Source: Alphaproteobacteria bacterium
GTDB lineage: Bacteria; Pseudomonadota; Alphaproteobacteria; Bin95
Assembly (NCBI GenBank): GCA_965220855.1
Contig: CBDCQY010000001.1
Location: 1,384,592 to 1,448,591, forward strand
Length of the DNA: 64,000 nt
Reading direction: 5' to 3'
In this document: positions 31,210-57,800 of the stretch, piece after piece
How the letters are laid out: every line of letters starts with the position of its first letter
How positions within the stretch are numbered: position 1 is the stretch's first letter
Made by a program: the position numbers and the translations under genes
Notes under the pieces: generated by a model
The model's input: only the letters and a program-made list of their open reading frames with translations
What the model was told of the DNA's origin: nothing
Database searches by the model: none

Positions 31210-32396
31210 CCGCCTGGCTGACCGTGCTCGGCGTCGGCGAGGACGGGCTGGACGCGGCCGGCCGGGCGGCGGTCGAGAGCGCCGCCCTGCTGGTCGGCGG
31301 CGAGCGTCACCTGGCGCTCGCCGGCCCGGCGTCGGCGGCCGAGCGCCTGGTCTGGCAGCGCCCGCTCTCGCGCACCATCGACGCCATTCTCGCCCGCCGG
31401 CCGGCGCCGGTCGCGGTGCTGGCGACCGGCGACCCGATGTGGTTCGGCATCGGCGCGGCGCTCGCCCGGCGGGTTCCGGCGGATGAGATGCGCATCCTGC
31501 CGGTCGCCGGCGCCTTCTCGCTGGCGGCCGCGCGCCTGGCCTGGCCGCTGGAGGGCGTGGCGGCCTTCTCGCTGCACGGTCGGCCGCTGGGCCTGCTGGC
31601 GCTGCATGTCGCGCCCGGCGCGCGCCTGCTGGCGCTCTCGCACGACGGCGGCACGCCGGCGGGCGTGGCCGACTGGCTCACGCGCCACGGTTACGGGGCG
31701 AGCCGCATGACCGCGCTCTCCCATATGGGCGGCCCGCTGGAGGCGCGACGCGACGGACGCGCCGACGAGTGGTCGGGCGAGACGCCCGACCTCAACACGC
31801 TGGCGATCGAATGCGTGGCCGGCCCCGAGGCCCGCATCCTGTCGCGCGCGCCGGGCCTGCCGGACGAGCTGTTCGAGCATGACGGGATGCTGACGCGCGC
31901 GCATGTCCGCGCGGCGACGCTCTCGCTGCTGGCGCCGACGCCGGGCGCGCGCCTCTGGGACATCGGCGCGGGCTCGGGCGCGATCGCCATCGAGTGGATG
32001 CGCGCCGGCGGCCGGGCCAGCGCCGTCGAACCGGTGGCGGAGCGCCGGGCCGTCATCGCGCGCAACGCCGAGGCGCTGGGCGCACCGTGGCTGGAGTTGC
32101 ATGACGGCCGCGCGCCGGAGGCGCTGGAGGGCCTGCCGGCCCCGGATGCGGTGTTCGTCGGCGGGGGCCTCTCCGCCGAGGGCGTGCTGGAGGCGGCCTG
32201 GGCGGCGCTCGGGCCGTCGGGGCGGCTGGTCGCCAACGCGGTCACGCTGGAAGGCGAGGCGCGGCTGCTGCGCGCGCGCGCCGAACTGGGCGGCGAGCTC
32301 TGGCGCATCGCGACCGCCGCGGCCGGTCCGGTCGGGCGCTTCCAGGCCTTCCGCCCCGCCATGACCGTCACGCAATGGGCGGTGCGGAAGCCGTGA
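31206..32396 (+). CDS. cobL: precorrin-6Y C5,15-methyltransferase (decarboxylating) CobL (CbiE/CbiT fusion)
   Basis: ATGA overlap with the cobH stop. Two methyltransferase halves; ATGDPMWFGIG is the tetrapyrrole-MT motif. Confidence 0.9.
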   Translation: MTAWLTVLGVGEDGLDAAGRAAVESAALLVGGERHLALAGPASAAERLVWQRPLSRTIDAILARRPAPVAVLATGDPMWFGIGAALARRVPADEMRILPVAGAFSLAAARLAWPLEGVAAFSLHGRPLGLLALHVAPGARLLALSHDGGTPAGVADWLTRHGYGASRMTALSHMGGPLEARRDGRADEWSGETPDLNTLAIECVAGPEARILSRAPGLPDELFEHDGMLTRAHVRAATLSLLAPTPGARLWDIGAGSGAIAIEWMRAGGRASAVEPVAERRAVIARNAEALGAPWLELHDGRAPEALEGLPAPDAVFVGGGLSAEGVLEAAWAALGPSGRLVANAVTLEGEARLLRARAELGGELWRIATAAAGPVGRFQAFRPAMTVTQWAVRKP

Positions 32397-33112
32397 CCGG
32401 CCGGTCGCCGCGCGCCTGGGTGGCGGGCGTCGGGGTCGGTCCGGGCGACCCGGAACTGCTGACGCTCAAGGCGCTGCGCATCGTGCGCAAGGCGGATGTG
32501 CTGGCCTATCCGGCCCCGCTCGAAGGCGAGAGCTTCGCGCGCCGGGTGGTCGCGCCGCATCTCGACGGCCCCGCCATCGAACTGCCGATCCGCATGCCGA
32601 TGTCTCCGTCGCGCTTCCCGGCCCAGCCGGTCTATGACCGGGCGGCGGACGCTATCGGGGCGCATCTCGAAGCCGGCCGGGGCGTGGCGGTGCTCTGCCA
32701 GGGCGATCCGTTCTTCTACGGCTCCTTCCTCTATCTGTTCGCGCGGCTCGCGGAAGACTGGCCGGTCGAGGTGGTGCCCGGCGTCTCGGCGCTGACCGCC
32801 TGCGCGGCCGTCGCCGGCCGACCGCTCGCCACGCGCAACGATGCGCTCGCGGTGCTGCCCGCGCCGCTCGACGATGCGGCGCTGGAGGCCAGGCTCGCCG
32901 CCTGCGACGCGGCCGCGCTGGTCAAGGTCGGGCGGCATTTCGGGCGCATCCGCGCCCTGCTCGCCCGGCTGCAACTCGCGGACCGCGCCTGCCTGGTCGT
33001 CCATGCCGGGCTGCCGGACGAGCGCGTGCTCGCCCTCGACGCCGTGGGCCCCGAGGATGCGCCCTATTTCTCCACCATCCTGCTGCACAAGCGGGGCAGG
33101 GCGTGGCGATGA
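32393..33112 (+). CDS. cobI: precorrin-2 C20-methyltransferase CobI/CbiL
   Basis: GTGA start/stop overlap. VGVGPGDPELLTLKA is the tetrapyrrole-MT motif. Confidence 0.85.
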   Translation: MTGRSPRAWVAGVGVGPGDPELLTLKALRIVRKADVLAYPAPLEGESFARRVVAPHLDGPAIELPIRMPMSPSRFPAQPVYDRAADAIGAHLEAGRGVAVLCQGDPFFYGSFLYLFARLAEDWPVEVVPGVSALTACAAVAGRPLATRNDALAVLPAPLDDAALEARLAACDAAALVKVGRHFGRIRALLARLQLADRACLVVHAGLPDERVLALDAVGPEDAPYFSTILLHKRGRAWR

Positions 33113-34749
33113 CGGTCGCGGTGGTGCTGAACGCGCGCGGCGCGGCGCTGGCCCGGCGGCTGGAGCTGGAGAGCGTCGGGCTGGAGGCGCTGGAGGAGCG
33201 CTTCGCCGCCGGAGAGCCGATCGTCGCCATCATGGCCGCCGGCATCGTCATCCGCCGCCTGGCCCCGCTGCTGGCGGGAAAGCGGACCGACGCGCCGGTC
33301 GTCGCCCTGGCGGAGGACGGCAGCGCGGTCGCGCCCCTGCTCGGCGGGCATCGGGGCGCGAACCGGCTGGCGCGCGAACTCGCCCGGCGGCTCGGCGTGG
33401 CGGCGGCGGTGACCACGGCGAGCGACGCGCTGTTCGGCGTGGCGCTGGACGACCCGCCGCCCGGCTGGACGCTCGCCAATCCCGAGATGGCGAAGCCGGT
33501 CATGGCGGCGCTGATCCGTGGGGAGCCGGTGCGGCTCCGGGTCGAGGCCGGCGACGCGCGCTGGCTCGCCCGGCTGCCCTGGTCGGAGGAGGGGCGCCGG
33601 TCGGTCCGCGTCTCGGACCGCTCCGCGCCGCCGGGCGAGGACGAACTGCTGCTGCATCCGCCGAGCCTCGCGCTGGGCGTCGGGCTGGAGCGGGACGCGC
33701 CTGCGCCCTCGCTGCTGGATCATGTGGCAAGGACGCTGGCCGCGGCCGGGCTGGCGCGGGCCTCGGTCGCGCTCGCTGCGACGCTCGACCTGAAGGCCGA
33801 CGAGCCGGCCGTCGCGGCGCTCGACCTGCCGCTTCGCACCTTCGACGCCGCCACGCTCCGGCGCGTGCCCGCGCCCAATCCCTCGCAGATCGTGGCGGCG
33901 GCGGTCGGCACGCCGAGCGTGGCCGAGGCGGCCGCCCTTGCGGCGGCGGGCGACGGGGCGGAACTGGTCGCGCCCAAGCGTATCGGCCGGCGCGTCACCG
34001 CTGCCGTCGCCCGCATCGCGCCGCCGCCCGGCCGGCTGACCGTGGCCGGAATAGGCCCCGGCGACCCGGCCATGCGCACGGCGGAGGTCGAGGCCGCGAT
34101 CTCGGCCGCGAGCGATGTCGTCGGCTATGCGCCCTATCTCGACCTGGTGGCGGACCTCACCGGAACCGCGCGCCGCCACCCGATGCCGATCGGCAGCGAG
34201 GCGGCGCGCGTCGATCTGGCGCTCAGGCTCGCGGGAGAAGGCCGCGAGGTCGCGCTGCTGGCCTCGGGCGACGCCGGCGTCTATGCGCTGGCGGGGCTGG
34301 CGCTGGAGCGCGGCCCGGCGGCGCTGCCCATCGCCGTGCTGCCCGGCGTCTCGGCCATGCAGGCGGCGGCGGCGCGGGCCGGCGCGCCGCTCGGCCACGA
34401 TTTCGCGGCGATCTCGCTCTCCGACCTGCTGACGCCGCCGGAGACCATTCGCGCGCGCGTCGAGGCGGCGGCGGCGGCGGACTTCGTCATCGCCTTCTAC
34501 AATCCGGCCTCGAAGACGCGGCGCCGGCCGCTGGCCGAGGCGCTGGAGACGCTCGCCCGCCACCGCGCGCCGACGACGCCCGTGGTCCGGGCGCGCAATC
34601 TCGGCCGGCCGGGAGAGGAGGTCGCGATCGGGACGCTGGCGGAACTCGACCCGGAGCGCGTCGATATGAACACCGTGCTGATCGTCGGCAACAGCCGCAG
34701 TTTCCTGCGCCACGGCCGCGTGGTCACGCCGCGCGGCTATCCGGCATGA
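33109..34749 (+). CDS. cobJ: bifunctional CbiG-like / precorrin-3B C17-methyltransferase (CbiG::CobJ/CbiH fusion)
   Basis: The N-terminal ~300 aa are CbiG-like. The C-terminal methyltransferase carries AGIGPGDPAMRT. ATGA overlap with the cobI stop. Confidence 0.8.
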   Translation: MTVAVVLNARGAALARRLELESVGLEALEERFAAGEPIVAIMAAGIVIRRLAPLLAGKRTDAPVVALAEDGSAVAPLLGGHRGANRLARELARRLGVAAAVTTASDALFGVALDDPPPGWTLANPEMAKPVMAALIRGEPVRLRVEAGDARWLARLPWSEEGRRSVRVSDRSAPPGEDELLLHPPSLALGVGLERDAPAPSLLDHVARTLAAAGLARASVALAATLDLKADEPAVAALDLPLRTFDAATLRRVPAPNPSQIVAAAVGTPSVAEAAALAAAGDGAELVAPKRIGRRVTAAVARIAPPPGRLTVAGIGPGDPAMRTAEVEAAISAASDVVGYAPYLDLVADLTGTARRHPMPIGSEAARVDLALRLAGEGREVALLASGDAGVYALAGLALERGPAALPIAVLPGVSAMQAAAARAGAPLGHDFAAISLSDLLTPPETIRARVEAAAAADFVIAFYNPASKTRRRPLAEALETLARHRAPTTPVVRARNLGRPGEEVAIGTLAELDPERVDMNTVLIVGNSRSFLRHGRVVTPRGYPA

Positions 34750-35507
34750 CGGTGCATTTCATCGGCGCGGGGCCGGGCGCGCCGGACCTCATCACGCTGC
34801 GCGGGCTGCGCCTGATCCGCCGCTCGCCGGTGGTGCTCTACGCCGGCTCGCTGGTGCCGGCGGAGGTCGTGGCCGAGGCGCCGGCGGGCGCGCTGGTCCG
34901 CGACAGCGCCGCCATGACGCTCGACGAGATCGAGGCGCTGTTCGTCGAGGCCGAGGCGGCCGGGCGGGATGTCGCGCGGGTGCATTCCGGCGACCCCTCT
35001 CTCTACGGGGCCATCGCCGAGCAGATCGCGCGGCTGGAGCGGCTCGGCATCGCCTATACGATCACGCCGGGCGTGCCGGCCTTCGCCGCCGCCGCCGCCG
35101 CGCTCGGCCTGGAACTGACGCTGCCCGGCGTCGCCCAGACCGTGACGCTGACCCGCACGGCCGTGCGCGCCACGCCCATGCCCGAAGGCGAACACCTGGC
35201 CGCCCAGGCGGAGAGCGGCGGCACGCTCGCCATCCACCTCTCGACCGCCAATCTCGCCCGCGTGGTGCGCGACCTGCTGCCGGCGCTCGGGCCGGACTGT
35301 CCGGCGGCGGTGGTCTGGCGCGCCAGCCAGCCGGAGCAGCGCATCGTGACCGGCACGCTCGCCACCATCCGCGAGCGGGTGAAGGCGGCGGGCTTCACTC
35401 GGACGGCGCTGATCCTGGTCGGTCGGGCGCTGGGCGCGCGCGAATTTCAGGAGAGCCGGCTTTACGATCCGGCGCACCATCACGCATCGCGACCGCGGCG
35501 GCGATGA
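34746..35507 (+). CDS. cobM: precorrin-4 C11-methyltransferase CobM/CbiF
   Basis: VHFIGAGPGAPDLITLRG. ATGA overlap with the upstream stop. The long ORF starting at 32841 is an artefactual in-frame run. Confidence 0.9.
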   Translation: MTVHFIGAGPGAPDLITLRGLRLIRRSPVVLYAGSLVPAEVVAEAPAGALVRDSAAMTLDEIEALFVEAEAAGRDVARVHSGDPSLYGAIAEQIARLERLGIAYTITPGVPAFAAAAAALGLELTLPGVAQTVTLTRTAVRATPMPEGEHLAAQAESGGTLAIHLSTANLARVVRDLLPALGPDCPAAVVWRASQPEQRIVTGTLATIRERVKAAGFTRTALILVGRALGAREFQESRLYDPAHHHASRPRRR

Positions 35508-35899
35508 TGCGCCGCGTCTCCGACCAGAGCCGGTAGCCGTCGAGGCCGGCGAGCGGCGTCCAGCGCGCTTCGGCCGCGTCGTCGCCCGCCACGGCCTCGC
35601 CCGAGAGCCATTCGGCGGCGAAATCGACCAGCGTGTAGTGGCTGACGACGGCCCCGGCCGCATCGCGGCGGACGCCATCGACCACATCGACCAGGCCGAG
35701 CAGGGCGATCTCGACGCCGGTCTCTTCCCGGACCTCGCGGCGCGCGGCCTCGCGGACCGTCTCGCCCAGCTCCTGCTTGCCGCCCGGAATGCTCCACTCG
35801 CCCTGTCTCGGCGGCCTGCCGCGCCGGACCAGCAGCACCTCGGCCCCGCGCAGCACGACGACGCCGACCCCGACCACGGGCCGCCCGGAGCCGGCCATC
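35395..35899 (-). CDS. NUDIX hydrolase
   Basis: Nudix box GGKQELGETVREAARREVREETGV. Its 3' end overlaps the cobM 3' end convergently by ~110 bp. Confidence 0.7.
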
Positions 35900-35917
35900 G
35901 AACCCTCCCCTCGCGGA

Positions 35918-36640
35918 TCAGGCCATATACTGGCCGCCATTGACCGAGACTGTCGAGCCGGTCACGAAGCAGGCGTCGTCCGCCACCAGGAAGCGCACCA
36001 CATGGCAGATCTCCCTCGGGTCGCCGAAGCGCCCGACGGGAATCTTGCTCTTGATCGCGTCCTGCACGCGCTCCGGCACCGCGCGCACCATGTCGGTATC
36101 GACATAGCCGGGGCAGATCGCGTTGACGGTGACGCCCTTGGGCGCGCTCTCCAGCGCCAGCGCCTTGGTGAAGCCCAGAATGCCGGCCTTGGCGGCGGCG
36201 TAGTTGGTCTGCCCGATCTGGCCCGCCTGGCCGTTGACCGAGGAGATGTTGACGATGCGCCCGAAGCCCCGGTCGCGCATCTTGCCGATCACCACCCGGC
36301 ACATGTTGAAGCAGGAGGTGAGATTGGTCTCGATCACCTCATGCCAGGCGTCCTCCGGCATCCGGTGCAGGAAGACATCGTGCGTGATGCCGGCATTGTT
36401 GACCAGGATATCGACCGGGCCGTAGCTCTCCTCGATCTCGTGCACCGCCCGGTCGCAGGCGGCGTAGTCGGCGACGTCGAAGGACTGGATGTCGATGCCG
36501 GTCTCCTCGTGGAAGCGCTGGGCGCGCTCGAAATTGCGGTGGAAGCTGGCGATCACGGTGTAGCCGTCGGCCTGCATCCCGCGCGAGATTTCGGCGCCGA
36601 TGCCCCGCGTGCCTCCGGTGATAAGTGCGACTCTCGGCAT
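35918..36640 (-). CDS. phaB: acetoacetyl-CoA reductase (PHB pathway SDR)
   Basis: ITGGTRGIG...NNAG...NYAAAKAG. AAGGAGGG lies 8 nt upstream of the ATG. Confidence 0.85.
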   Translation of the reverse strand: MPRVALITGGTRGIGAEISRGMQADGYTVIASFHRNFERAQRFHEETGIDIQSFDVADYAACDRAVHEIEESYGPVDILVNNAGITHDVFLHRMPEDAWHEVIETNLTSCFNMCRVVIGKMRDRGFGRIVNISSVNGQAGQIGQTNYAAAKAGILGFTKALALESAPKGVTVNAICPGYVDTDMVRAVPERVQDAIKSKIPVGRFGDPREICHVVRFLVADDACFVTGSTVSVNGGQYMA

Positions 36641-36728
36641 GGCGCCGACCCTCCTTCATGTTGCAACGCACAACAGATAGCGATTGAATGCTGCATCGCA
36701 ATATATTTCCGGGCGAGGCGGCATCGTG

Positions 36729-37826
36729 TCACGCCAGACCGTCCATCCAGTCGAGCAGCGGCCGCCAGACGCGCCGGGGCGCGCTTTCGGAGGCCATCAG
36801 GCCGATATGCCCGAGGCGCGGGCGCTTCACGCTCGCATCCGGCAGGGCGCGGGCGAGGGCCAGCGCCGAGGCGGGCGGCACGATCCGGTCGCCGGAAGGC
36901 GCGACCACCCGGGCGGGCAGCCGCACCGCCTCCGGGCGGACCGGCTCGCCCGCGACCCGCCAGCATCCGCGCGCCGGCTGGTTGCGGCCGTACCAGCCGG
37001 CGAAGCATTCCCGCGCGACCGGGGCGGCGAGCGGCGCGCCGTCATTCACCCAATCTTCGAGCTCGACGAAGGCGCGCTCGGCCTCCGAGCCTGCCTCGAT
37101 GCGGTCGAAAGCCAGGAACTTGCGCAGCGTCAGCATCGGGTCGAGCGCATAGAAGCAGGTTTGCAGCGCATCGACCGGCAGCTCCCCGCCCGCGCCCGCC
37201 AGCCGCGCCAGCGCCTCGCCGGCAAAGGCGAGCCGCCGCGCTTCCGGGCCGCCGCCGGCGTGGAAGTCCCAGGGCGTGGCGAGCAGCGCCAGGCCGGAAA
37301 GCGCCACCCGCCCGCGCGCCGCCAGCGCCAGCGCCAGCAGCCCGCCCATGCAATAGCCGACGACGATCGGCGGGCGCGCCGCCAGCCGGGCCGCCTCGCG
37401 GGCCAGCGGCTCCAGGGTGGCGCATACATAGCCGCCGCAGTCGAATGCGCGCTCGCGCTCGCCGGGCGCGCCCCAATCGACCAGCAGCACGCGCCAGCCG
37501 CGACCGGCGAGCCAGCCGGCGAAACTCCGCCGCCCGGCCAGGTCGCAGACATGGTAGCGGTTCACCAGCGAAGGCACGATCAGCGCCACGCGACCGCCCT
37601 CGCCCCAGGAAAGCAGCCGCGCGGCGCCCGCGCGCGCCACCGTGCGCTCGCCGTCGGCGGGGCGCCGGAAGGGGTGGGCGCGATAGCGGGCGACGGCGGC
37701 CTCGAAGCGTTGCAGACGGCGGATGGCGGCCGCGCCGACGGCCGCCGGGTCGGGCTCCAGGCCTTCCAGTTCGCCCCTGAGGTCGGGATGCCAGGCCGGC
37801 GCGCTAGCCGGGCCCGCCATCGCCAT
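36729..37826 (-). CDS. phaC: PHA synthase-like alpha/beta hydrolase (class III/IV PhaC-like, Cys lipase box)
   Basis: LIVPSLVNRYHVCDLAGRRSFAGWLAGRGWRVLLVDWGAPG...VVGYCMGG parallels class III PhaC, with the lipase box G-Y-C-M-G-G and downstream D.IVP and GHIG. The exact start is uncertain (M at 37826 or 37820). Confidence 0.5.
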   Translation of the reverse strand: MAMAGPASAPAWHPDLRGELEGLEPDPAAVGAAAIRRLQRFEAAVARYRAHPFRRPADGERTVARAGAARLLSWGEGGRVALIVPSLVNRYHVCDLAGRRSFAGWLAGRGWRVLLVDWGAPGERERAFDCGGYVCATLEPLAREAARLAARPPIVVGYCMGGLLALALAARGRVALSGLALLATPWDFHAGGGPEARRLAFAGEALARLAGAGGELPVDALQTCFYALDPMLTLRKFLAFDRIEAGSEAERAFVELEDWVNDGAPLAAPVARECFAGWYGRNQPARGCWRVAGEPVRPEAVRLPARVVAPSGDRIVPPASALALARALPDASVKRPRLGHIGLMASESAPRRVWRPLLDWMDGLA

Positions 37827-38104
37827 CGCCGCCCCGCCGCCCCACACCGCGGCTGCGGTCGCCAGGTGGAGCGCGAGCGGCCTCGGGCCGGTTCTCGGAG
37901 CCGTTGCGGTCATCGGGGTCGGCCTCGAACAGCAGGCGGGCGCTGTCGCGCCACCATGACAGCACATTCCGTTCCCACAGGTCGAGGAATCGGTCCGCCG
38001 GGTCTTGACTCATTGCAGAATCATTATACTCTGGTTGCACAAACACCCGCGCCCTAAAATCGCGTCCCGATAGAGCAGCACATACTGACAGGATCCACTC
38101 GATC

Positions 38105-39427
38105 ATGATGCCTTCCCGTCCCGGCCGCGTTCGGGCGGCCCTGTTCGTCGATTTCGACAATCTGTATCTCGGCCTCGAGGCCGCCGATGCGCGCGCCGCG
38201 AAATATTTCGCGGAGCAGCCGATGCGATGGATGAACTGGCTCGAACGCGGCTGCCACACCAACGCCGCCGGCAAGGATGGCCGCACGCGCCGCTCCGTGC
38301 TGCTGCGCAATTGCTATCTCGGTCCGGGCTCCGCCTCGCGCTTCCGCAACTTCCTCGCGCGCGGCGCCTTCTCGCTGGTCGATTGCCCGCCGCAGGAGGG
38401 CGCCGACAAGACCAACGTCCAGGTCCGGATGGCCATGGACATCATGGATGCGCTCGCCCATCCGACGCCCTTCGACGAATTCATCGTCCTGGCCCCGGAT
38501 GTCGATCTGCTGCCGCTGCTGCAGCGCCTGCGCGCCCACGACCGGCGCACGGCGGTGCTCGCCGGCGCGGCCGCCGCCCCGGCGCTCGCCGCCGCCTGCA
38601 CCTTCCTCGTCGATCAGGCGGTCTTCATCGAGACCGCGCTCGGCGACACGCCGCCCGCCCCGCCGCCGCCGCTCCACGCGGTGTCCGATGCGACGGCGAG
38701 GGCCTATGCGCCGCGGCCGTTCGCGCCGCGCCCCTTCATGCCGAGGCCGTCGCCGACCGGCGACTATGCGGTGCTGCCCGAGGTGGCGGCGGTGCTGCAT
38801 GAGTCGATCGAGCAGGACGGCCCGATACCTGCCGCCGAACTGCCGCATTTCTTCTTCCGGTTCGCGAACTTCCGCAACAGCGACTGGTTCGGATTCCGCT
38901 CGCTCCGTCGCCTCGCCGAGGCGCTGACGACCGTCGATCCGATGCTGGAATGCGGCGAGCCGGGCGAGGAGTGGCAGATGGCGCTCCGGGAAGAGCCGCT
39001 GGAGTCGGCGGCGGACGCGCCGTTGGACCCCGGGCGCGCAGGGGCCGGCGGCAGCGACGGCCTCGCGGCCCTGATCGCGACCATCCATCAGCTGCTGGGC
39101 GTGCCGGCGCTCGGCCCGGACGGCTTCGACCTGCTGTTCGAGCATATGGCGAAGCTCTTCGACGAAGGCGTCACCGACCGGGTCGTCATGTCGAGGATGC
39201 TGCGCGAGCGCGTCGGCGAGGAGGGCGTGTCGCTGGCGCTCGAGGCGGCGGAATTCGTCACCGCCGGCCTCTGGCAGTCGGGCTTCGACGCCGGTTCGGA
39301 CGCCTCCGACCCCGATGTCGTCGCCAAGGCCTTCCGCGACTATGTGGTGGTGCGCTGCGAGCAGGCGCGCCATCCGCTGAACGAGGAGGAGCTGGCGCTG
39401 GTGGACGAGTGGCTGGTCGGAGCCTGA
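38105..39427 (+). CDS. NYN (PIN-like nuclease) domain protein with C-terminal OST-HTH/LOTUS-like region (LabA-like)
   Basis: The N-terminus ALFVDFDNLYLG...LVDCPP...KTNVQVRMAMDIMDAL...FIVLAPDVDLLPLLQRLR fits NYN. Later FFFRFANFRNSDWFGFRSLRRLAEAL resembles OST-HTH. High GC3. Confidence 0.7.
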   Translation: MMPSRPGRVRAALFVDFDNLYLGLEAADARAAKYFAEQPMRWMNWLERGCHTNAAGKDGRTRRSVLLRNCYLGPGSASRFRNFLARGAFSLVDCPPQEGADKTNVQVRMAMDIMDALAHPTPFDEFIVLAPDVDLLPLLQRLRAHDRRTAVLAGAAAAPALAAACTFLVDQAVFIETALGDTPPAPPPPLHAVSDATARAYAPRPFAPRPFMPRPSPTGDYAVLPEVAAVLHESIEQDGPIPAAELPHFFFRFANFRNSDWFGFRSLRRLAEALTTVDPMLECGEPGEEWQMALREEPLESAADAPLDPGRAGAGGSDGLAALIATIHQLLGVPALGPDGFDLLFEHMAKLFDEGVTDRVVMSRMLRERVGEEGVSLALEAAEFVTAGLWQSGFDAGSDASDPDVVAKAFRDYVVVRCEQARHPLNEEELALVDEWLVGA

Positions 39428-39491
39428 CGGAACCCGACGCCCGCCCGTGCTATGCTGCGGCCCAACCGAGCCCCGATGAGGCGCCACCGTC

Positions 39492-40067
39492 ATGGCCGCA
39501 CAGAAGCAGGAAGGACCGGTTCGCATCCGCAAATATGCGAACCGGCGCCTCTATAACACCGGGACCAGCAGCTATGTCACGCTGGCGGACCTCGCCCAGC
39601 TGGTCCGCGACGGGGTGGAGTTCAGCGTCGAGGACGCCAAGACCGGCGAGGACCTGACGCGGGCGATCCTGACGCAGATCATCGTCGAGGAAGAACAGAA
39701 CGGCGCCAATCTGCTGCCCGTGTCGCTGCTGCGCAGCATCATCGCCATGTATCGCGACAACAATATGGGCTGGATGCTGCCGGCCTATCTCGAACAGTCG
39801 ATGGAGTGGTTCACGGCCAACCGGGACGCCATGCGCCGGGAGGCCGAGCGCGCCTACGGCTCCGGCCTGGCGTTCGACTCGCTGGACGAGATCGGCCGGC
39901 GCAACATGGCGGTCTTCCAGCAGGCCATGCAGATGTGGAACCCGTTCGGCGCCGCAAAGCCCGACTCCGCCGCAGAAGCCGAGGACGGCGAGCTGCAGGC
40001 GATGCGCGGCGAGATCGCGAAAATGCAGGAGCGGCTCGACGAACTGGCGCGCAAGCAGGGCGAATAG
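39492..40067 (+). CDS. phaR: polyhydroxyalkanoate synthesis repressor PhaR
   Basis: IRKYANRRLYNTGTSSYVTLADLAQLVRDGVEFSVEDAKTGEDLTRAILTQIIVEEE is a near-canonical PhaR N-terminus. Confidence 0.9.
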   Translation: MAAQKQEGPVRIRKYANRRLYNTGTSSYVTLADLAQLVRDGVEFSVEDAKTGEDLTRAILTQIIVEEEQNGANLLPVSLLRSIIAMYRDNNMGWMLPAYLEQSMEWFTANRDAMRREAERAYGSGLAFDSLDEIGRRNMAVFQQAMQMWNPFGAAKPDSAAEAEDGELQAMRGEIAKMQERLDELARKQGE

Positions 40068-40073
40068 GCCGCC

Positions 40074-41225
40074 TCAGGGGCCGCTATAGAGCCAGGCGAG
40101 CCCCTCGCGGATTTCCGTGCCGCCGGCCAGCAGTTCGTTGCGCAGCTCCCGGCGCACGCCTTCGGCATGGTAGAGCTCGCCCATCATCCGGGCCGTCAGC
40201 TGCACGCGCGCCGTGCGCAGATAGCGCGCCCTGGCGTAGCTCTCGAAGGCGCGTTCGACATCGCTGTCGGCGGCGAGCGCGTCGGCCAGCGTCACTGCGT
40301 CCTCCAGCGCCATGCAGGCGCCCTGGGCCAGATATTGCAGCATCGGATGCGCGGCGTCGCCCAAGAGGCAGAGCCGCCCGCGCGACCAGCGGGCAACCGG
40401 CTCGCGGTCGCAGAGCACCCACATGCGCCAGGTCTCGATCTTCTCCAGAAGCCCCATCTGCCGGTCCGAGACGCCGGCGAAGCGCGCCATCAGCTCCTCC
40501 GGGTCGCCCTCGCTGTCCCAGCCTTCCACATAGCGGTCGGAATGGAACACGGCGACGAGGTTGAACAGGGTTCCGCGCCGCAGCGGATAATGCACCAAAT
40601 GGTTGCGCGGGCCGGCCCAGAGCGCGGCGGCGTTCCAGCGCATCTCCTCCGGCGCCTCCGCCATCGGCAGCACGGCCCGGTAGGCGATATGGCCGGAGAC
40701 GATGGGCGGCCCGTCGCCGACCACCTCGGCGCGGACCCGCGACCAGAGGCCGTCCGCGCCGATCAGGAAGGCGCCCTCGCGCCGGCCGCCATCGCCGAGC
40801 GCCGCGCGCACCCGCCCGCCAAGGTCTTCCAGGCCGACGACCTGCGCATCGGTCTCCAGCGTCACCTGCTCCGAGGCCTGGCACGCCTCCAGCAGCGCGC
40901 GATGCAGGTCGGCCCGGTGCGTCACCGCATAGGGGGCGCGGAAGCGGGCGCGGAACGCCTCGCCCAGATCGGCGGTGACGACGGTCTCGCCCGAGAGCGC
41001 GTCCATCATCACCAGCCGCTCGACGAACACGGCCTCGCGCGCCACCGCCTCGCGCACGCCCAGCCGGTCGAACATGCGGAACGCATTGGGGCCGAGCTGG
41101 ATGCCGGCGCCGATCTCGCCGAAGGCCGGCGCCTGCTCCAGCACATGCGACGCCATGCCCCGGCGCGCCAGCGCCAGCGCCGCCGCCAGGCCGCCGAGGC
41201 CGCCGCCGACGATCAGCGCCGTCAC
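40074..41225 (-). CDS. FAD-dependent monooxygenase (salicylate / 3-hydroxybenzoate hydroxylase-like)
   Basis: IVGGGLGGLAAALALARRG (GxGxxG), GADGLWSRVR and GDAAHPMLQYLAQGACMALED. Confidence 0.85.
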   Translation of the reverse strand: MTALIVGGGLGGLAAALALARRGMASHVLEQAPAFGEIGAGIQLGPNAFRMFDRLGVREAVAREAVFVERLVMMDALSGETVVTADLGEAFRARFRAPYAVTHRADLHRALLEACQASEQVTLETDAQVVGLEDLGGRVRAALGDGGRREGAFLIGADGLWSRVRAEVVGDGPPIVSGHIAYRAVLPMAEAPEEMRWNAAALWAGPRNHLVHYPLRRGTLFNLVAVFHSDRYVEGWDSEGDPEELMARFAGVSDRQMGLLEKIETWRMWVLCDREPVARWSRGRLCLLGDAAHPMLQYLAQGACMALEDAVTLADALAADSDVERAFESYARARYLRTARVQLTARMMGELYHAEGVRRELRNELLAGGTEIREGLAWLYSGP

Positions 41226-51885: not shown

Positions 51886-54800
51886 TCAGAAGTTGAAGCG
51901 AAAGTTGAAGTGGAGGCGGCGGTTGTCAGCGGAGCCGCCGCGGTTCTCATGGCCGGCGATCAGTTCCAGATCGATATGGCGGGCGGCGGCCTGGAAGGCG
52001 AGGCCGGCCTCCAGTTTGCTCCGGTCGCCCGTCTCCTCCGAGAGGCGCAGCAGGGGTGACAGCAGGCCGGATGAGGCCGGCAGCTGGAAGCCGTAGCGGG
52101 CCTCCAGTTCCAGCAGGGTTGCATCGTTGCTTCCGAAGCTGGCTTCGTCATAGTCGAGATCGTCCGCCAGCATCGCGGACCTGTCCGCGCGCGGACCGGT
52201 CGTCAGGCGCACCGACCAGGAGAGGCCGCGCCCGCGGGCGCCCGGCGCCAGCCGCGCCTCTAGGCTCGCGCCCCATTCGCGCACGCCACGCCCGGAATGC
52301 GCCGCCAGCCAGCGGCCGCTCGCATCCAGGCTGAAGCGCGAGCCGGGGTCCGTGAGGCGCCCGCCGACCGAAACCTCGACGCCGGAGCCCGTCACCCCGT
52401 CGCCGCCGTCCTGGCGCAGCGTCAGTGCGCCGTGCGGCGCCAGCGTCAGTTCGGAGCTGGAGAACACAAATCCGTCATGTTCGGCTTCCACGCCGACGCC
52501 GAGGCGCCAACTCGCCGCCTTCAGCCCGCCGATCGAGGTCGCTCGGGAGCCGTCGGTCTCGATTTGCGCCAGGCCCAACTCGCCGGTTGCAGAGAGAGCG
52601 AAGCGGTCGTGCTGCGCTACGGGCATGCGCCCGCCGGCCGACAAGGCTAGCAATTCGAGGTCGGCCCGCTCCACCGCTCCTTCTCTCGGGCGATGCTCCA
52701 TCTCGCCCTGCCCGGCTCCGAGCACCAGGCGCAACCGGCCGCCGCCTTCCGTCGTCATCTGCAGATAGGGCCAGACCGCGGTCACCGAGGTCTCGACGCT
52801 GCCGCTGTCCTCGTCGATGCGGTAGTCGGTCTCGCCGTCGCTCATCGAGAGTCCGAGGCCGGCCAGCAGCCGTTCGTCCAGCCGCGCGTCCAGCCCCAGC
52901 CAGCCGGCCCGCTGCTCCCCTTCATAGCGCCCCGTCTCCGCCGGGCCCTCGAACTGCCGCCAGTCGCCCCGGCCCCAGACCGTCCAGGCCGCGCCGCTGT
53001 CCGCAGTTTCGTCCGACGCAGCCAGCGGCAGCGTGAAGGCGCTGCCGCCCAACAGGGTCTCGGCGCTCACCGCGTCATGCCGCCCGGCCGCCCCGCCCGG
53101 GGTTCGCACGATCCGGTTGCCCGTTTCGGAAGCGGCGAGTTGGCGCGCGTCGCCTACCCGGCGCCCGGCAAGCGACAGCGCCGGCGCGCCCGGCGTCGCA
53201 TCGAACCGCAAGCGGATCGCATCCGTCGCGCTCGACAAGGCGGTCCGCGCGATCCTGGCGAGCATCGCCTTCAGCACTTGCCGCTCGACCTCCGGCGGGG
53301 CGTCCTCGATCTCGTTGGTCACCGTCACCGTCACCGACCGGTCCGCCATATTGCCGTCGGCGTCGGTCGCGGTCAGCGTGTAGGCGTAGCCATTGTCCGC
53401 GTCGCTGTCGTCCGGCTTCTCGAAGTCCCGCCCGGCCAGCGTCACCGTGACGCCGCTGTTGCTCGCGCCCGAGAGCGCGAACAGGTCCGCATCGGCGCCC
53501 GAGAGCGACCAGGCGACGGCGCCGATCGGCGCATCGCCCGTCAACACCGCCGCGCCGGCATAGTCGGCGTTCTCCGCCACGCTGGCGTTGGCCACGCCGC
53601 CGAGAGCCAGCGCCGCCGCCTCGATGACATCCGTCACCGTCACCGTCACCGCAAGGCTCGTGATGTTGTCGTCATCGTCGGTCGCGGTCAGCGTGTAGGC
53701 GTAGCCATTGTCCGCGTCGCTGTCGCCCGGGTTCTCATAGTTGCGCGCGGCCATCGACACCGTAACGCCGCTGTTGCTCCCGCCCGAAAGCGCGAACAGG
53801 CCGGCGTCCGCCCCCGAGAGCGACCAGGCGACGGCGCCGATCGGCGCATCGCCCGTGAGCGTCGCCATTCCGCTGTAGCCGGCGTTCTCCGCCACGCTGG
53901 CGTCGCCCACCCCCGCGATGGCCAGAGCCGCAGTCTCGTCCGCGTCCGTCACCGCGATCGTCACCGAGGCGTTCGTGGTGTTGCTGTCGTCGTCGGTCGC
54001 AGTCAGCGTGTAGGCGTAGCTGTTGCCGCCGTCGGCGTCGCTCGGGTTCTCGAAGTCCTTCGGGGTCATCGACACCGTGACGCCGCCATTGCTCGCGCCC
54101 GAGAGCGTGAACAGGTCCGCGTCGGCGCCCGAAAGCGACCAGGAGACCGCGCCGATCGGCCCGCCCGTGAGCGTCGCCGTTCGGCTATAGGCCGCGCCCT
54201 CCGCCACGCTGGCGTCAGCCACCCCCGCCAAGGTCAGCGTCGCGGTCTCGATCGCGTCCGTCACCGTGACGGTCACCGTCCGGCTCACCGTGTTTTCGTC
54301 ATCGTCGGTGGCGGTCAGCGTGTAGATATAGCTGTTGTCGGCGTCGGCGTCGGTCGGGTTTTCGAAGTCGCGCACCGTCAGCGTCACCGTGACCCCGCTG
54401 TTGCTCTCGTCCGAGAGTTCGAACAGCTCTCCGTCATCGCCGTCGAGCTTCCAGGCGACGGAGCCGATCGGCGCCTCGCCCGCCATCACCGCCGCGCCGC
54501 TATAGACGGCGTTCTCCGCCACACTGGCGTCGGCCACGCCCGCCACCGCGAGCGCAGCGACCTCTTTCGCGTCCGTGACCGTCACCGTGAAGACATCCGA
54601 GGTCACCGTGTCGCCGTCGCGATCCGTCGCCTTCAGCGTGTATTCGTAACGGTTGTCCCCGTCGCTGTCGGCGGGGTTCTCGAAGTCCTGCTCCGCCAGC
54701 GTCACGGTCGCCTCGGTGGCGCTCTCGCCCGACAGCGCGAACTTCCCGGCGTCGGCTCCGCCAAGCTCCCAGTTCACCGGCGCGTCGGCCCCGGCCAGCG

Positions 54801-57800
54801 TCGCCTTGTCGGTGAAGGTCCCGTTCTCCTCCACTTCGCCGCTGTCGAGCTCCGTCAGGACCAGTATCCGGTCATCGTCCGCGACCGTCACCGTCACGCT
54901 GCCCGCGACCTCGTCATATTCCACGCCCGACGCCGCCAGCGCCACCGTCACGGTCTCGTTCGCCGCATCGTCGCCATCGTCATCGACCGGCGAGACCGTC
55001 ACCGTCTGCGCCATCTCCCAGTCGTCGGCGGTGAAGGTCAGCTCCGCCGGCGAAACCGTCGCCGCGCCCGCGTCACCGCTCGACACCGCCACCGTCACCG
55101 CCGCCGTCGGCACATGCGAAAGCGCAACCGTGAATGTCCCGGCGCCCTGGCCTTCGCTCAGCGCCAGCGCGCCATTCGTCAGCCCCGCCAGACTCAAGGA
55201 CGCGATCTCGTCATCCGCAACCGTCACCGAAACGCTGCCGGCGGCCTCGTCATATTCCACGCCCGACGCCGCCAGAGACACCGACAGGGCCTCGTTCCCC
55301 GCATCCGCGTCATCGACCGGCGTCACCGTCACCGTCTGCGCCACATTCCAGTTCGTCGGCGTGAATGACAGGGTCGTCGGCGTCGCCGCCGCCGCGCCCG
55401 CGTCACCGCTGGCTACCGCCACCGTCACCGCCGCCGTCGGCACATGCGAAAGCGCAACCGTGAATGTCCCGGCAGAGCCGCCCTCCGTCAGCGACACCGG
55501 ACCCCCGGCAACCGCCAGCGACGCCGTCTCGTCATCCGCAACCGTCACCGAAACGCTGCCCGCGACCTCGTCATATTCCACGCCCGACGCCGCCAGAGAC
55601 ACCGACAGGGCCTCGTTCCCCGCATCCGCGTCATCGACCGGCGTCACCGTCACCGTCTGCGCCGTATTCCAGTTCGTCGGCGTGAATGACAGGGTCGCCG
55701 GCGCCGCCGCCGCCGCGCCCGCGTCACCGCTGGCTACCGCCACCGTCACCGCCGCCGTCGGCACATGCGAAAGCGCAACCGTGAATGTCCCGGCAGAGCC
55801 GCCCTCCGTCAGCGACACCGGACCCCCGGCAACCGCCAGAGACGCCGTCTCGTCATCCGCAACCGTCACCGAAACGCTGCCGGTAACCGATCCATACTCC
55901 GTCGCCCCGGACGCCGTGAGCGAGACCGACAGGGCCTCGTTCCCCGCATCCGCATCATCGACCGGCGTCACCGTCACCGTCTGCGCCGCATTCCAGTTCG
56001 TCGGTGTGAACGACAGGGTCGCCGGCGTCGCCGCCGCCGCGCCCGTATCACCGCTGGCTACCGCCACCGTCACCGCCGCCGTCGGCACATGCGAAAGCGC
56101 AACCGTGAATGTCCCGGCGGAGCCGCCCTCCGTCAGCGACACAGGACCCCCGGCAACCGCCAGAGACGCCGTCTCGTCATCCGCAACCGTCACCGAAACG
56201 CTGCCGGTAACCGATCCATACTCCGTCGCCCCGGACGCCGTGAGCGAGACCGACAGCGACTCGTTCCCCGCATCCGCATCATCGACCGGCGTCACCGTCA
56301 CCGTCTGCGCCGTATTCCAGTTCGTCGGCGTGAATGACAGGGTCGTCGGCGTCGCCGCCGCCGCGCCCGCGTCACCGCTGGCTACCGCCACCGTCACCGC
56401 CGCCGTCGGCGCATGCGAAAGCGCAACCGTGAATGTCCCGGCAGAGCCGCCCTCCGTCAGCGCCACCGGACCCCCGGCAACCGCCAGAGACGCCGTCTCG
56501 TCATCGTCAACCGTCACCGAAACGCTGCCCGCGACCTCGTCATATTCCACGCCCGACGCCGCCAGAGACACCGACAGGGCCTCGTTCCCCGCATCCGCGT
56601 CATCGACCGGCGTCACCGTCACCGTCTGTGCCGCATTCCAGTTCGTCGGCGTGAATGACAGGGTCGCCGGCGTCGCCGCCGCCGCGCCCGTATCACCGCT
56701 GGCTACCGCCACCGTCACCGCCGCCGTCGGCACATGCGAAAGCGCAACCGTGAATGTCCCGGCAGAGCCGCCCTCCGTCAGCGACACCGGACCCCCGGCA
56801 ACCGCCAGAGACGCCGTCTCGTCATCCGCAACCGTCACCGAAACGCTGCCCGCGACCTCGTCATATTCCACGCCCGACGCCGCCAGAGACACCGACAGGG
56901 CCTCGTTCCCCGCATCCGCGTCATCGACCGGCGTCACCGTCACCGTCTGCGCCGCATTCCAGTTCGTCGGCGTGAATGACAGGGTCGTCGGCGTCGCCGC
57001 CGCCGCGCCCGTATCACCGCTGGCTACCGCCACCGTCACCGCCGCCGTCGGCACATGCGAAAGCGCAACCGTGAATGTCCCGGCGGAGCCGCCCTCCGTC
57101 AGCGCCACCGGACCCCCGGCAACCGCCAGAGACGCCGTCTCGTCATCCGCAACCGTCACCGAAACGCTGCCCGCGACCTCGTCATATTCCACGCCCGACG
57201 CCGCCAGAGACACCGACAGCGACTCGTTCCCCGCATCCGCGTCATCGACCGGCGTCACCGTAACCGTCTGCGCCGCATTCCAGTTCGTCGGCGTGAATGA
57301 CAGGGTCGTCGGCGTCGCCGCCGCCGCGCCCGCGTCACCGCTGGCTACCGCCACCGTCACCGCCGCCGTCGGCACATGCGAAAGCGCAACCGTGAATGTC
57401 CCGGCAGAGCCGCCCTCCGTCAGCGCCACCGGACCCCCGGCAACCGCCAGAGACGCCGTCTCGTCATCGTCAACCGTCACCGAAACGCTGCCCGCGACCT
57501 CGTCATATTCCACGCCCGACGCCGCCAGAGACACCGACAGGGCCTCGTTCCCCGCATCCGCGTCATCGACCGGCGTCACCGTCACCGTCTGCGCCGCATT
57601 CCAGTTCGTCGGCGTGAATGACAGGGTCGTCGGCGTCGCCGCCGCCGCGCCCGCGTCACCGCTGGCTACCGCCACCGTCACCGCCGCCGTCGGCACATGC
57701 GAAAGCGCAACCGTGAATGTCCCGGCAGAGCCGCCCTCCGTCAGCGACACCGGACCCCCGGCAACCGCCAGAGACGCCGTCTCGTCATCCGCAACCGTCA

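Follow-up and report, generated by a model that had tools for sequence, protein, structure and literature searches.

The window analyzed here is a stretch of 64,000 nucleotides (64 kb) from contig CBDCQY010000001.1 of an Alphaproteobacteria bacterium (assembly GCA_965220855.1). It carries a polyhydroxybutyrate (PHB) locus in which phaB, a gene for a short class III-like PhaC (the polyhydroxyalkanoate, or PHA, synthase) and phaR, which encodes the PHB-responsive repressor, are clustered, with a gene for a 440-residue protein containing an NYN nuclease domain between the phaC-like gene and phaR. A preliminary description of the locus read the position of this NYN gene as a sign of post-transcriptional control tied to carbon storage and offered an unrelated insertion as the alternative. 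The comparisons reported here favor the latter. The protein is probably a stand-alone factor for RNA binding or RNA decay with impaired catalysis, and it would lie beside phaR for historical rather than functional reasons. No evidence beyond adjacency links it to PHB regulation, and the PHA connection is most likely incidental.

The NYN protein has close orthologues, at 56-72% identity, in a few assemblies of uncultured organisms labeled 'Alphaproteobacteria bacterium' and in no others. In six of these, all complete or large (loci L001-L006), every gene from the NUDIX hydrolase gene to an acetamidase gene is collinear with the window, and in a divergent branch of the clade (L081, L085 and L170) the upstream cobalamin genes are collinear as well; across the clade, collinearity thus runs from the cobalamin genes through to the gene for 3-hydroxybenzoate monooxygenase. 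Because the whole region is collinear, the adjacency of the phaC-like, NYN and phaR genes within the clade carries little information. The NYN gene is present, in full synteny, wherever the PhaC-like protein shares 59% identity or more with that of the window, and only there. Loci with a PhaC-like protein of 50-52% identity lack it, and there phaR diverges from a phaC-like-phaA-phaB(-NUDIX) operon with nothing between phaR and the operon. Three such loci were annotated, one from Arenibaculum pallidiluteum and two from metagenome-assembled genomes (MAGs), one of them of the Inquilinaceae; their order is phaR diverging from small open reading frame (ORF)-phaC-like-phaA-phaB. A contig scan with a PhaC-like family profile gave 80 further metagenome loci, none with the NYN gene; these were selected as the best matches to the Arenibaculum protein and represent its part of the family, not the nearest sisters of the clade. 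In all of them where the sequence suffices phaR lies divergently upstream, and phaA and phaB follow the synthase gene. In the window no thiolase was found anywhere in the 64 kb, and phaB directly follows the phaC-like gene, a place occupied by phaA in nearly all related loci. The most parsimonious reading of these gene orders is that the divergent spacer received the NYN gene in an ancestor of the clade, and that phaA was lost. The GC content at third codon positions (GC3) of the NYN gene is 0.90, the same as that of the neighboring genes, and this agreement in composition indicates that the insertion is old. One short metagenome contig of 2.5 kb shows a different form of the gene (L089 245-1366, protein P0018). 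In this contig NYN residues 157-440 are fused in frame to a 94-residue weak phage-integrase fragment and followed by phaR, so that the end of the nuclease domain, the linker, the winged helix and the C-terminal domain are retained; the fusion is due either to chimeric assembly or to a natural variant without most of the nuclease domain.

Outside the clade the family is widespread and its surroundings are scattered. At least 425 relatives of the NYN protein were found in species-representative genomes of the Acidobacteriota (many of them Thermoanaerobaculia), Chloroflexota, Myxococcota (Polyangium), Actinomycetota (Embleya, Streptomyces), Desulfobacterota (Desulfovibrionaceae) and others. A search with the C-terminal module alone, against 1.84 billion representatives, gave 195 clusters at 50% identity; the module nearly always starts near residue 200 of a protein 430-560 residues long, that is, behind an NYN domain. 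In tblastn searches with the window proteins no PhaR or PhaC-like gene was detected in 74 distant loci (L007-L080), four of which have weak (28-31%) matches to a PhaB-type short-chain dehydrogenase several kb from the NYN gene. When these loci were combined with those of Tistlia (L082) and Roseomonas (L084), and the neighbors of all 76 were called with a GC3 filter and clustered, the 131 immediate neighbors were spread over 113 Pfam families. Recurrent partners were lineage-specific only, such as isoleucyl-tRNA synthetase upstream in Chloroflexota and TonB_C upstream in 12 loci, and the PhaR, PhaC and phasin families are absent among the 25 commonest neighbor families. Bacterial proteins joining a nuclease to an OST-HTH domain have been reported without conserved neighborhoods (PMC2848206), a description with which these scattered neighbors agree. 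A recurrent context of acyl-CoA metabolism (PHB in the clade, the liu operon in Tistlia, and Embleya) was considered as functional evidence and rejected. By a rough count it covers 3 of about 12 lineage-level contexts, and since acyl-CoA genes are abundant, chance suffices to explain it. As an observation in its own right, a DUF2750 gene lies downstream of the NYN homologue on the same strand, at a median distance of 7 bp, in 14 acidobacterial loci, mostly of Thermoanaerobaculia (Table 1). The two genes form a lineage-specific conserved pair of two uncharacterized families.

The operators of PhaR provide a second view of the insertion. The PhaR operator consensus of B. diazoefficiens, TGCRNYGCASMA, has been footprinted (PMC6201568), and the operator of S. 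meliloti has a palindromic core, YGCRNYGCR (PMC12542648). The B. diazoefficiens consensus was used to scan for exact matches and for matches with at most one mismatch. The 64 kb contain only three exact matches, two of which (TGCAACGCACAA and TGCGATGCAGCA) lie in the 88-bp spacer between the phaC-like gene and phaB. A further box, TGGGCCGCAGCA, lies in the spacer between the NYN gene and phaR; it has one mismatch in the window and is exact in all eight other aligned clade genomes (L001-L006, L081 and L085). Across the nine genomes this box falls within an invariant block, GTGnTATGCTGC....CAA, flanked by variable sequence with indels, and the block appears to resemble an extended -10 element (TGnTATGCT). 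In the outgroup locus L086 an exact PhaR box precedes phaA; the boxes of the window precede phaB instead. Upstream of the NYN gene, the 91-bp spacer holds no match to TGCRNYGCASMA with one mismatch or fewer, and no exact box precedes the NYN gene in any clade locus. The comparison shows that phaR kept its own predicted operator and that the NYN gene landed upstream of that operator, and by the same scan the NYN gene is not visibly a target of PhaR. Since PhaR boxes stand before phaB and phaR and none stands before the NYN gene, the latter is probably transcribed from its own promoter. A promoter and terminator scan of 35.3-40.3 kb returned nothing anywhere, and hence also no terminator between the NYN gene and phaR; because it was empty across the whole region of a genome of about 71% GC, the scan is uninformative. 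An ad hoc 13-mer, TGCTGCRYCGCAA, was also tried as a motif and set aside in favor of the published consensus, as it was no commoner than chance at two mismatches (19 found, 12 expected). In the leader of the NYN gene of L001-L006 (about 7935-7995) we noted a direct repeat, GATTGGAT(A/T)..N8-9..GATTGGAT, which is absent from the equivalent spacer of the window and may be a candidate site for binding of a regulator.

The assignment of the 440-residue protein to the NYN family in the preliminary description is borne out by a PF01936 match over residues 10-166 (55.9 bits against a curated threshold of 24.2, E-value 9e-15). An AlphaFold model built from an alignment of 18 sequences (predicted local distance difference test, pLDDT, 77) divides the protein into four parts (Table 1). 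For the model of the NYN domain the best Foldseek matches in the PDB are the NYN domain of MARF1 (6fdl and 5yaa; E-value 9e-4, target template-modeling score 0.78), a PIN-like fold. The remainder of the protein is less readily placed. The C-terminal 240 residues (201-440) match no Pfam family even at an E-value of 10, and the OST-HTH family PF12872 is present in none of 72 homologues with precomputed Pfam annotation. This part had been called LOTUS-like, which holds for a winged helix in the broad sense; the specific family has no sequence match, and solved LOTUS domains resemble the C-terminal model only at a generic winged-helix level. In the predicted structure the winged helix and the helical domain together find their best match in the ROQ domain, an extended winged helix with flanking helical subdomains, at 9-13% identity in the structural alignments and a Foldseek E-value of 0.05. 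No Roquin appeared among the PDB sequence matches and no homology to ROQ was detected at the sequence level, and we therefore describe a resemblance of predicted folds and claim no common ancestry with ROQ. When the PDB was searched by sequence, using the NYN domain alone or either of two family profiles, only a weak match to VPA0982 appeared, besides spurious coiled-coil, ankyrin and ferritin matches.

Several motifs of the NYN domain are nearly invariant in an alignment of 42 homologues. They are FVDFDN (D16, D18 and N19), YLNP (N73), DCP (D93), K-x3-D-[IV]-x-M-x2-D (K102, D106 and D112) and S-x-D-x-D-F (S130, D132 and D134), and within them D106 and N73 are each found in 41 of the 42 proteins, with position 130 being Ser in 39 and Thr in 3. 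The window protein carries the substitutions N73G, D106Q and S130A. It retains D16, D18, N19, D93, D112, D132 and D134, so that the catalytic Asp residues that were expected of an active enzyme are present with the exception of D106, which is Gln. In a weak profile alignment to VPA0982 the motifs FVDFDN, xD(I/V)xMxxD and SxDxDF fall on the conserved motifs of that protein, D106 aligning with the WDV Asp, a residue at the start of a helix, and S130-x-D132 with the SGD motif. The active-site set of MARF1 comprises D178/N181, D215, D246 and S270/D272, and the substitutions D246A and D272A abolish RNA cleavage (PMC6217404). Judged from motif and secondary structure, D106 would correspond to MARF1 D246, which likewise stands at a helix N-terminus, and S130/D132 to S270/D272. 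Orthologues of the L001-L006 type keep every motif residue of the NYN domain. The branch comprising L081, L085 and protein P0017 has A19, P102, Gly or Ala at position 106, T130 and G132.

Selection was compared domain by domain as the ratio of nonsynonymous to synonymous substitution rates (dN/dS) by the method of Nei and Gojobori; with dS as high as 0.5-1.0 the ratios themselves are approximate, but the contrast between domains, taken within the same gene pairs, is robust. Among L001-L006 the ratio is 0.04-0.06 for the NYN domain, 0.03-0.12 for the winged helix and 0.08-0.10 for the C-terminal domain. Between the window and L001-L006 it is 0.31-0.44 for the NYN domain (dN about 0.24), 0.006-0.04 for the winged helix (dN 0.006-0.03) and 0.13 for the C-terminal domain. 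The NYN domain of the L081/L085 branch shows a dN/dS of 0.08, indicative of purifying selection, despite its lost catalytic residues. Similarly, relative to the orthologues of 65-72% overall identity the winged helix of the window protein is 92-99% identical and the NYN domain 56-65%, and relative to the P0017/L085 branch the figures are 86% and 51-54%. The order is reversed for family members outside the clade, with 30-40% for the winged helix and 44-49% for the NYN domain. On this sequence evidence the putative nuclease site is eroded, independently, in two of the three clade sublineages, with the winged helix under extreme constraint. The NYN gene is not a pseudogene, since its frame of 440 codons is intact and its other domains are constrained.

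Our proposed explanation is that the NYN gene belongs to a sparse, phylum-spanning family that combines an NYN domain of the LabA/DUF88 type with a winged-helix and helical module. By analogy with MARF1 and with the 'LK-nuclease' plus OST-HTH proteins described in 2010, such proteins may serve as stand-alone RNA-binding or RNA-cleaving factors. In the ancestor of the clade, as the comparison of loci shows, the gene entered an otherwise canonical PHB locus between the operator of phaR and the promoter side of the phaC-like gene, and phaA was lost at some point. Transcription would start from a promoter of its own, possibly reading through into phaR. The ROQ-like module would bind nucleic acid, most likely structured RNA, and in the catalytically intact relatives the NYN domain would cleave the bound RNA in the manner of MARF1, a nuclease that needs its winged-helix domain to act (PMC6217404). 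In the window lineage, where the NYN site is eroded and the winged helix near-invariant, the protein may mainly bind nucleic acid, its cleavage being weakened or lost.

Several observations weigh against this explanation. The loss of catalysis is deduced from the substitutions alone, with the equivalent of MARF1 D215 not placed, and the likeness to ROQ depends on a predicted model. The winged helix, at 86-99% identity within the clade as against 30-40% to other family members, could reflect a clade-specific partner gained after the insertion. In Tistlia consotensis the homologue lies between the genes for MCC-alpha and HMG-CoA lyase and overlaps the latter by 4 bp (L082 5898-10300), and in Embleya (L020, L024, L025 and L069) it lies between acyl-CoA synthetase and thiolase genes. 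Furthermore, the NYN gene has been kept beside phaR, in the same orientation and 26-64 bp away, over a divergence that reaches NYN identities of 54-56% and a dS of about 0.8-1.2. This stable, tight spacing and the lack of a predicted terminator between the two genes leave room for co-transcription and a functional link. Such a link would take the form of recruitment after insertion, the protein being co-transcribed with phaR and binding or cutting stem-loops in pha or phasin mRNAs as a post-transcriptional layer of control. The same-strand spacing holds in 11 of the 11 clade loci examined, the winged helix is hyper-conserved specifically inside the clade, the L089 variant retains only the winged-helix and C-terminal part beside phaR, and the acyl-CoA contexts of Tistlia and Embleya would fit; even so, we regard recruitment as possible but unlikely. 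Adjacency is uninformative in a clade that is collinear throughout, the NYN gene has no PhaR box upstream and phaR has its own box between the two genes, and the association is found in none of 83 NYN-less relatives and none of 76 distant NYN loci. Rfam families are absent from the whole window at the gathering threshold and from the locus at an E-value of 1, and literature searches, made in an incomplete collection, turned up neither a connection between NYN proteins and PhaR nor a ROQ-like domain from bacteria. A more specific version, in which the protein was co-opted as a largely nuclease-dead stem-loop binder that governs how stable, or how well translated, the mRNAs of phaR, phasin or PHB enzymes are, with the near-frozen winged helix reflecting a clade-specific RNA or protein partner, appears rather doubtful to us. 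The ROQ domain binds RNA stem-loops, and Roquin acts together with the PIN-like RNase Regnase-1; if true, co-option of this kind would be a bacterial counterpart of Roquin/Regnase logic in the control of carbon storage. Post-transcriptional control tied to carbon storage, as first proposed, thus finds no comparative support. The two observations that the preliminary description had named as telling against it, a neighborhood that is not conserved and missing catalytic Asp residues, were both found in part, as the phaC-NYN-phaR order is kept in a narrow syntenic clade and is absent from NYN-less relatives and from distant NYN loci, and as D106 is missing. The insertion is better supported, being limited to one clade whose NYN-less relatives have phaR directly divergent and whose distant homologues lack PHA neighbors.

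Three other explanations start from the protein or from its arrival rather than from PHB. The winged helix might bind DNA, making the protein a transcription factor or nucleoid-associated protein with the NYN domain as a degenerate scaffold. Erosion of the nuclease site in two of three clade sublineages would be expected under this idea, which we hold to be improbable given the fusion to an NYN RNase domain that is intact in 41 of 42 other homologues and argues for RNA. It is very improbable that the gene is a decaying, functionless remnant in this genome, as the elevated NYN dN/dS on the window branch (up to 0.3-0.44) and the three lost near-invariant residues might suggest, because the frame is intact, the winged helix (0.006-0.04) and C-terminal domain (0.13) remain constrained on that same branch, and the NYN domain of L081/L085 is still under purifying selection after losing catalytic residues. 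Finally, cargo of a mobile or conflict (toxin or defense) element that landed beside phaR could account for the short contig in which a weak phage-integrase fragment is joined to the 3' two-thirds of the gene, and for the AbiEii-family gene nearby in six acidobacterial loci. At the insertion site of the clade loci there is neither an integrase nor a tRNA nor any repeat, the composition of the gene matches the host, its position has been stable over long divergence, and no partner gene is conserved across lineages; this origin is hardly credible. Our preferred explanation remains a stand-alone RNA-binding or decay factor that became a neighbor of phaR by insertion.

Table 1. Features of the PHB locus and its surroundings in the window, and related features at other loci (positions are those of the window unless a locus is named).
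Feature	Position	Strand	Evidence and remarks
Cobalamin-biosynthesis cluster (precorrin methyltransferases, CbiG-like)	32375-35500	+	directly upstream of the PHB locus
NUDIX hydrolase gene	35395-35940	-	ORF listing and family scan
phaB, acetoacetyl-CoA reductase, 240 residues	35918-36640	-	TIGR01829, 342 bits (cut-off 302)
PhaR box 1, TGCAACGCACAA	36662-36673	+	exact; exact box at the same position in L001-L006
PhaR box 2, TGCGATGCAGCA	36689-36700	-	exact; likewise exact in L001, L002 and L005 at this position
PhaC-like alpha/beta hydrolase gene, 394 residues from M19	36729-37913 (ORF open to 37967)	-	TIGR01836, 108 bits against 365; PF00561
GHIG motif, residues 386-389	36801-36812	-	PhaC-like protein
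DRIVP motif, residues 360-364	36876-36890	-	PhaC-like protein
GYCMGG motif, residues 204-209	37341-37358	-	PhaC-like protein
Small ORF, 69 residues, MSQDPADRFLDLWERNVLSWWRD...	37804-38013	-	N-terminal motif conserved; overlaps the start of the phaC-like gene in another frame
Divergent spacer between small ORF and NYN gene, 91 bp	38014-38104		no PhaR box; poorly conserved between the window and L001-L006
Gene for the NYN-linker-winged-helix-helical-domain protein, 440 residues	38105-39427	+	PF01936, E-value 9e-15, residues 10-166
NYN (PIN-like) domain, residues 8-178	38126-38638	+	confident in the model; degenerate active site (G73, Q106, A130)
Pro-rich disordered linker, residues 179-218	38639-38758	+	pLDDT below 50 for residues 183-218; variable, with indels
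Winged helix, residues 219-296 (model 221-294)	38759-38992	+	cropped model, pLDDT 88
C-terminal helical domain, six helices, residues 316-440 (model to 438)	39050-39424	+	AlphaFold model
PhaR box before phaR, TGGGCCGCAGCA	39453-39464	-	one mismatch in the window; in the 64-bp NYN-phaR spacer
phaR, PHB-responsive repressor, 191 residues	39492-40067	+	TIGR01848, 130 bits against 109.45; PF07879 and PF05233
3-Hydroxybenzoate 6-monooxygenase gene, convergent to phaR	40074-41225	-	ORF listing and family scan
4024-residue ORF	51886-63960	-	presumably a giant protein of surface or adhesin-like type
26 tandem copies of a 321-bp unit	54878-63278		107 residues per unit, 93% matches; within the 4024-residue ORF
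Small ORF at other loci	L086 4415-4630; L087 about 5775-6120; L088 about 5795-6120; also L090-L169		
NYN homologue and DUF2750 gene pair	L008, L012, L017, L019, L028, L030, L032-L035, L041, L051, L054, L059		for example L030 9657-10055

The genes of the window, which has about 71% GC and about 90% GC at third codon positions, were called from a six-frame ORF listing and family scans, and these confirm that the four genes of the preliminary description exist and lie clustered with the NYN gene between the others. The phaB gene extends to 36640, one base short of position 36641, at which the region given in that description began, and its product is 87-89% identical to those of the clade loci. 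PhaR matches TIGR01848 above threshold and has both the N-terminal DNA-binding domain (PF07879) and the PHB_acc domain (PF05233).

The PhaC-like protein has the GYCMGG, DxIVP (here DRIVP) and GHIG motifs that had been reported for it, and in 20 PhaC-like relatives G203, Y204, C205, D359, G385 and H386 (P0061 numbering) are invariant. These motifs presumably supply the Cys-Asp-His triad of PhaC. The protein falls below the threshold for class III PhaC, its TIGR01836 match covering model positions 66-348 only, and it has more than 5000 relatives, annotated in some sources as 'alpha/beta fold hydrolase' and in others as 'PHA synthase'. By comparison with P0030, which is 98% identical, translation probably begins at M19 (37913). 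As had been noted, phaE is missing from the cluster; no PhaE family matched anything scanned, and the sole ORF adjoining the phaC-like gene is the small ORF of 69 residues. The small ORF matches no Pfam or NCBIfam family, PhaE included, even at an E-value of 10. Its N-terminal motif is kept in the clade with a coding-like pattern of substitutions, and the ORF is also present in the three NYN-less outgroups (for example LARRYLDLWQEQWAAMAADPE in Arenibaculum) and in 63 of the 67 metagenome loci with sufficient upstream sequence. In general it is 60-110 residues long, carries the motif LA[RK]RY[LV]DLWQ[DE]Q..A.A.DP and lies immediately 5' of the short phaC-like gene, often overlapping it. We considered whether it might be the true N-terminus of the PhaC-like protein and rejected this, as relatives begin with ...GPRPL.LH without the motif and the ORF lies in another frame. 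It may be a candidate for the missing partner subunit of this short, PhaE-less, class III-like synthase family.

Elsewhere in the window, periodic near-matches to the PhaR consensus brought to light the tandem 321-bp units listed in Table 1, which presumably encode the repeats of a giant protein, of surface or adhesin-like type.

The NYN gene is best regarded as a passenger specific to this lineage. To read it as a regulator that acts generally on carbon storage at the post-transcriptional level would spread a false functional annotation. The coexistence of nuclease-intact and nuclease-eroded orthologues in this NYN family is a natural experiment on an RNase turning into a pure RNA binder. In addition, a very large family of short, sub-threshold PhaC-like proteins in Rhodospirillales-type bacteria is almost always preceded by the RY(L/V)DLWQ(D/E)Q small ORF, and the idea that this ORF encodes a partner subunit is testable. 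The small ORF and the C-terminal module of the NYN family are more useful subjects than the original idea of PHA regulation.

The locus can be compared with the canonical alphaproteobacterial PHB locus, in which phaR diverges from phaC, phaA and phaB and PhaR (AniA) has an autoregulatory operator. The window shares phaR, phaB, a PhaC-like protein and consensus boxes before phaB and phaR. It differs in lacking phaA, in the extra NYN gene that splits the divergent promoter region, and in its short, sub-threshold class III-like synthase with a small ORF in the place of PhaE.

The NYN protein itself resembles the bacterial proteins that join an 'LK-nuclease' (DUF88/NYN, PF01936) to an OST-HTH domain, in that an N-terminal NYN/PIN-like domain is followed by a winged helix (Anantharaman, Zhang and Aravind 2010, PMC2848206; the solved VPA0982, 2qip). 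Similarly, those proteins are spread sporadically and widely among bacteria, have no conserved neighborhood and are predicted to act alone in RNA degradation or binding. Unlike them, the window family has no PF12872 match and its winged helix is packed with a helical domain of about 125 residues that belongs to no Pfam family; the window copy, moreover, lacks D106, S130 and N73. MARF1, an NYN endoribonuclease with LOTUS domains (5yaa, 6fdl and 5yad), provides the best structural match for the NYN domain and the same pairing of a nuclease with an attached winged-helix RNA binder. The winged-helix and helical module is most like the ROQ domain of Roquin-1 and Roquin-2 (4qi0, 4qik and 4zlc) in predicted fold, and unlike it in sequence, where no homology was seen. 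Relative to the known proteins with an NYN domain and a winged helix, what is new here is a family without an OST-HTH signature, with an unannotated helical domain and a ROQ-like predicted fold, and with a degenerate active site in the lineage of the window.

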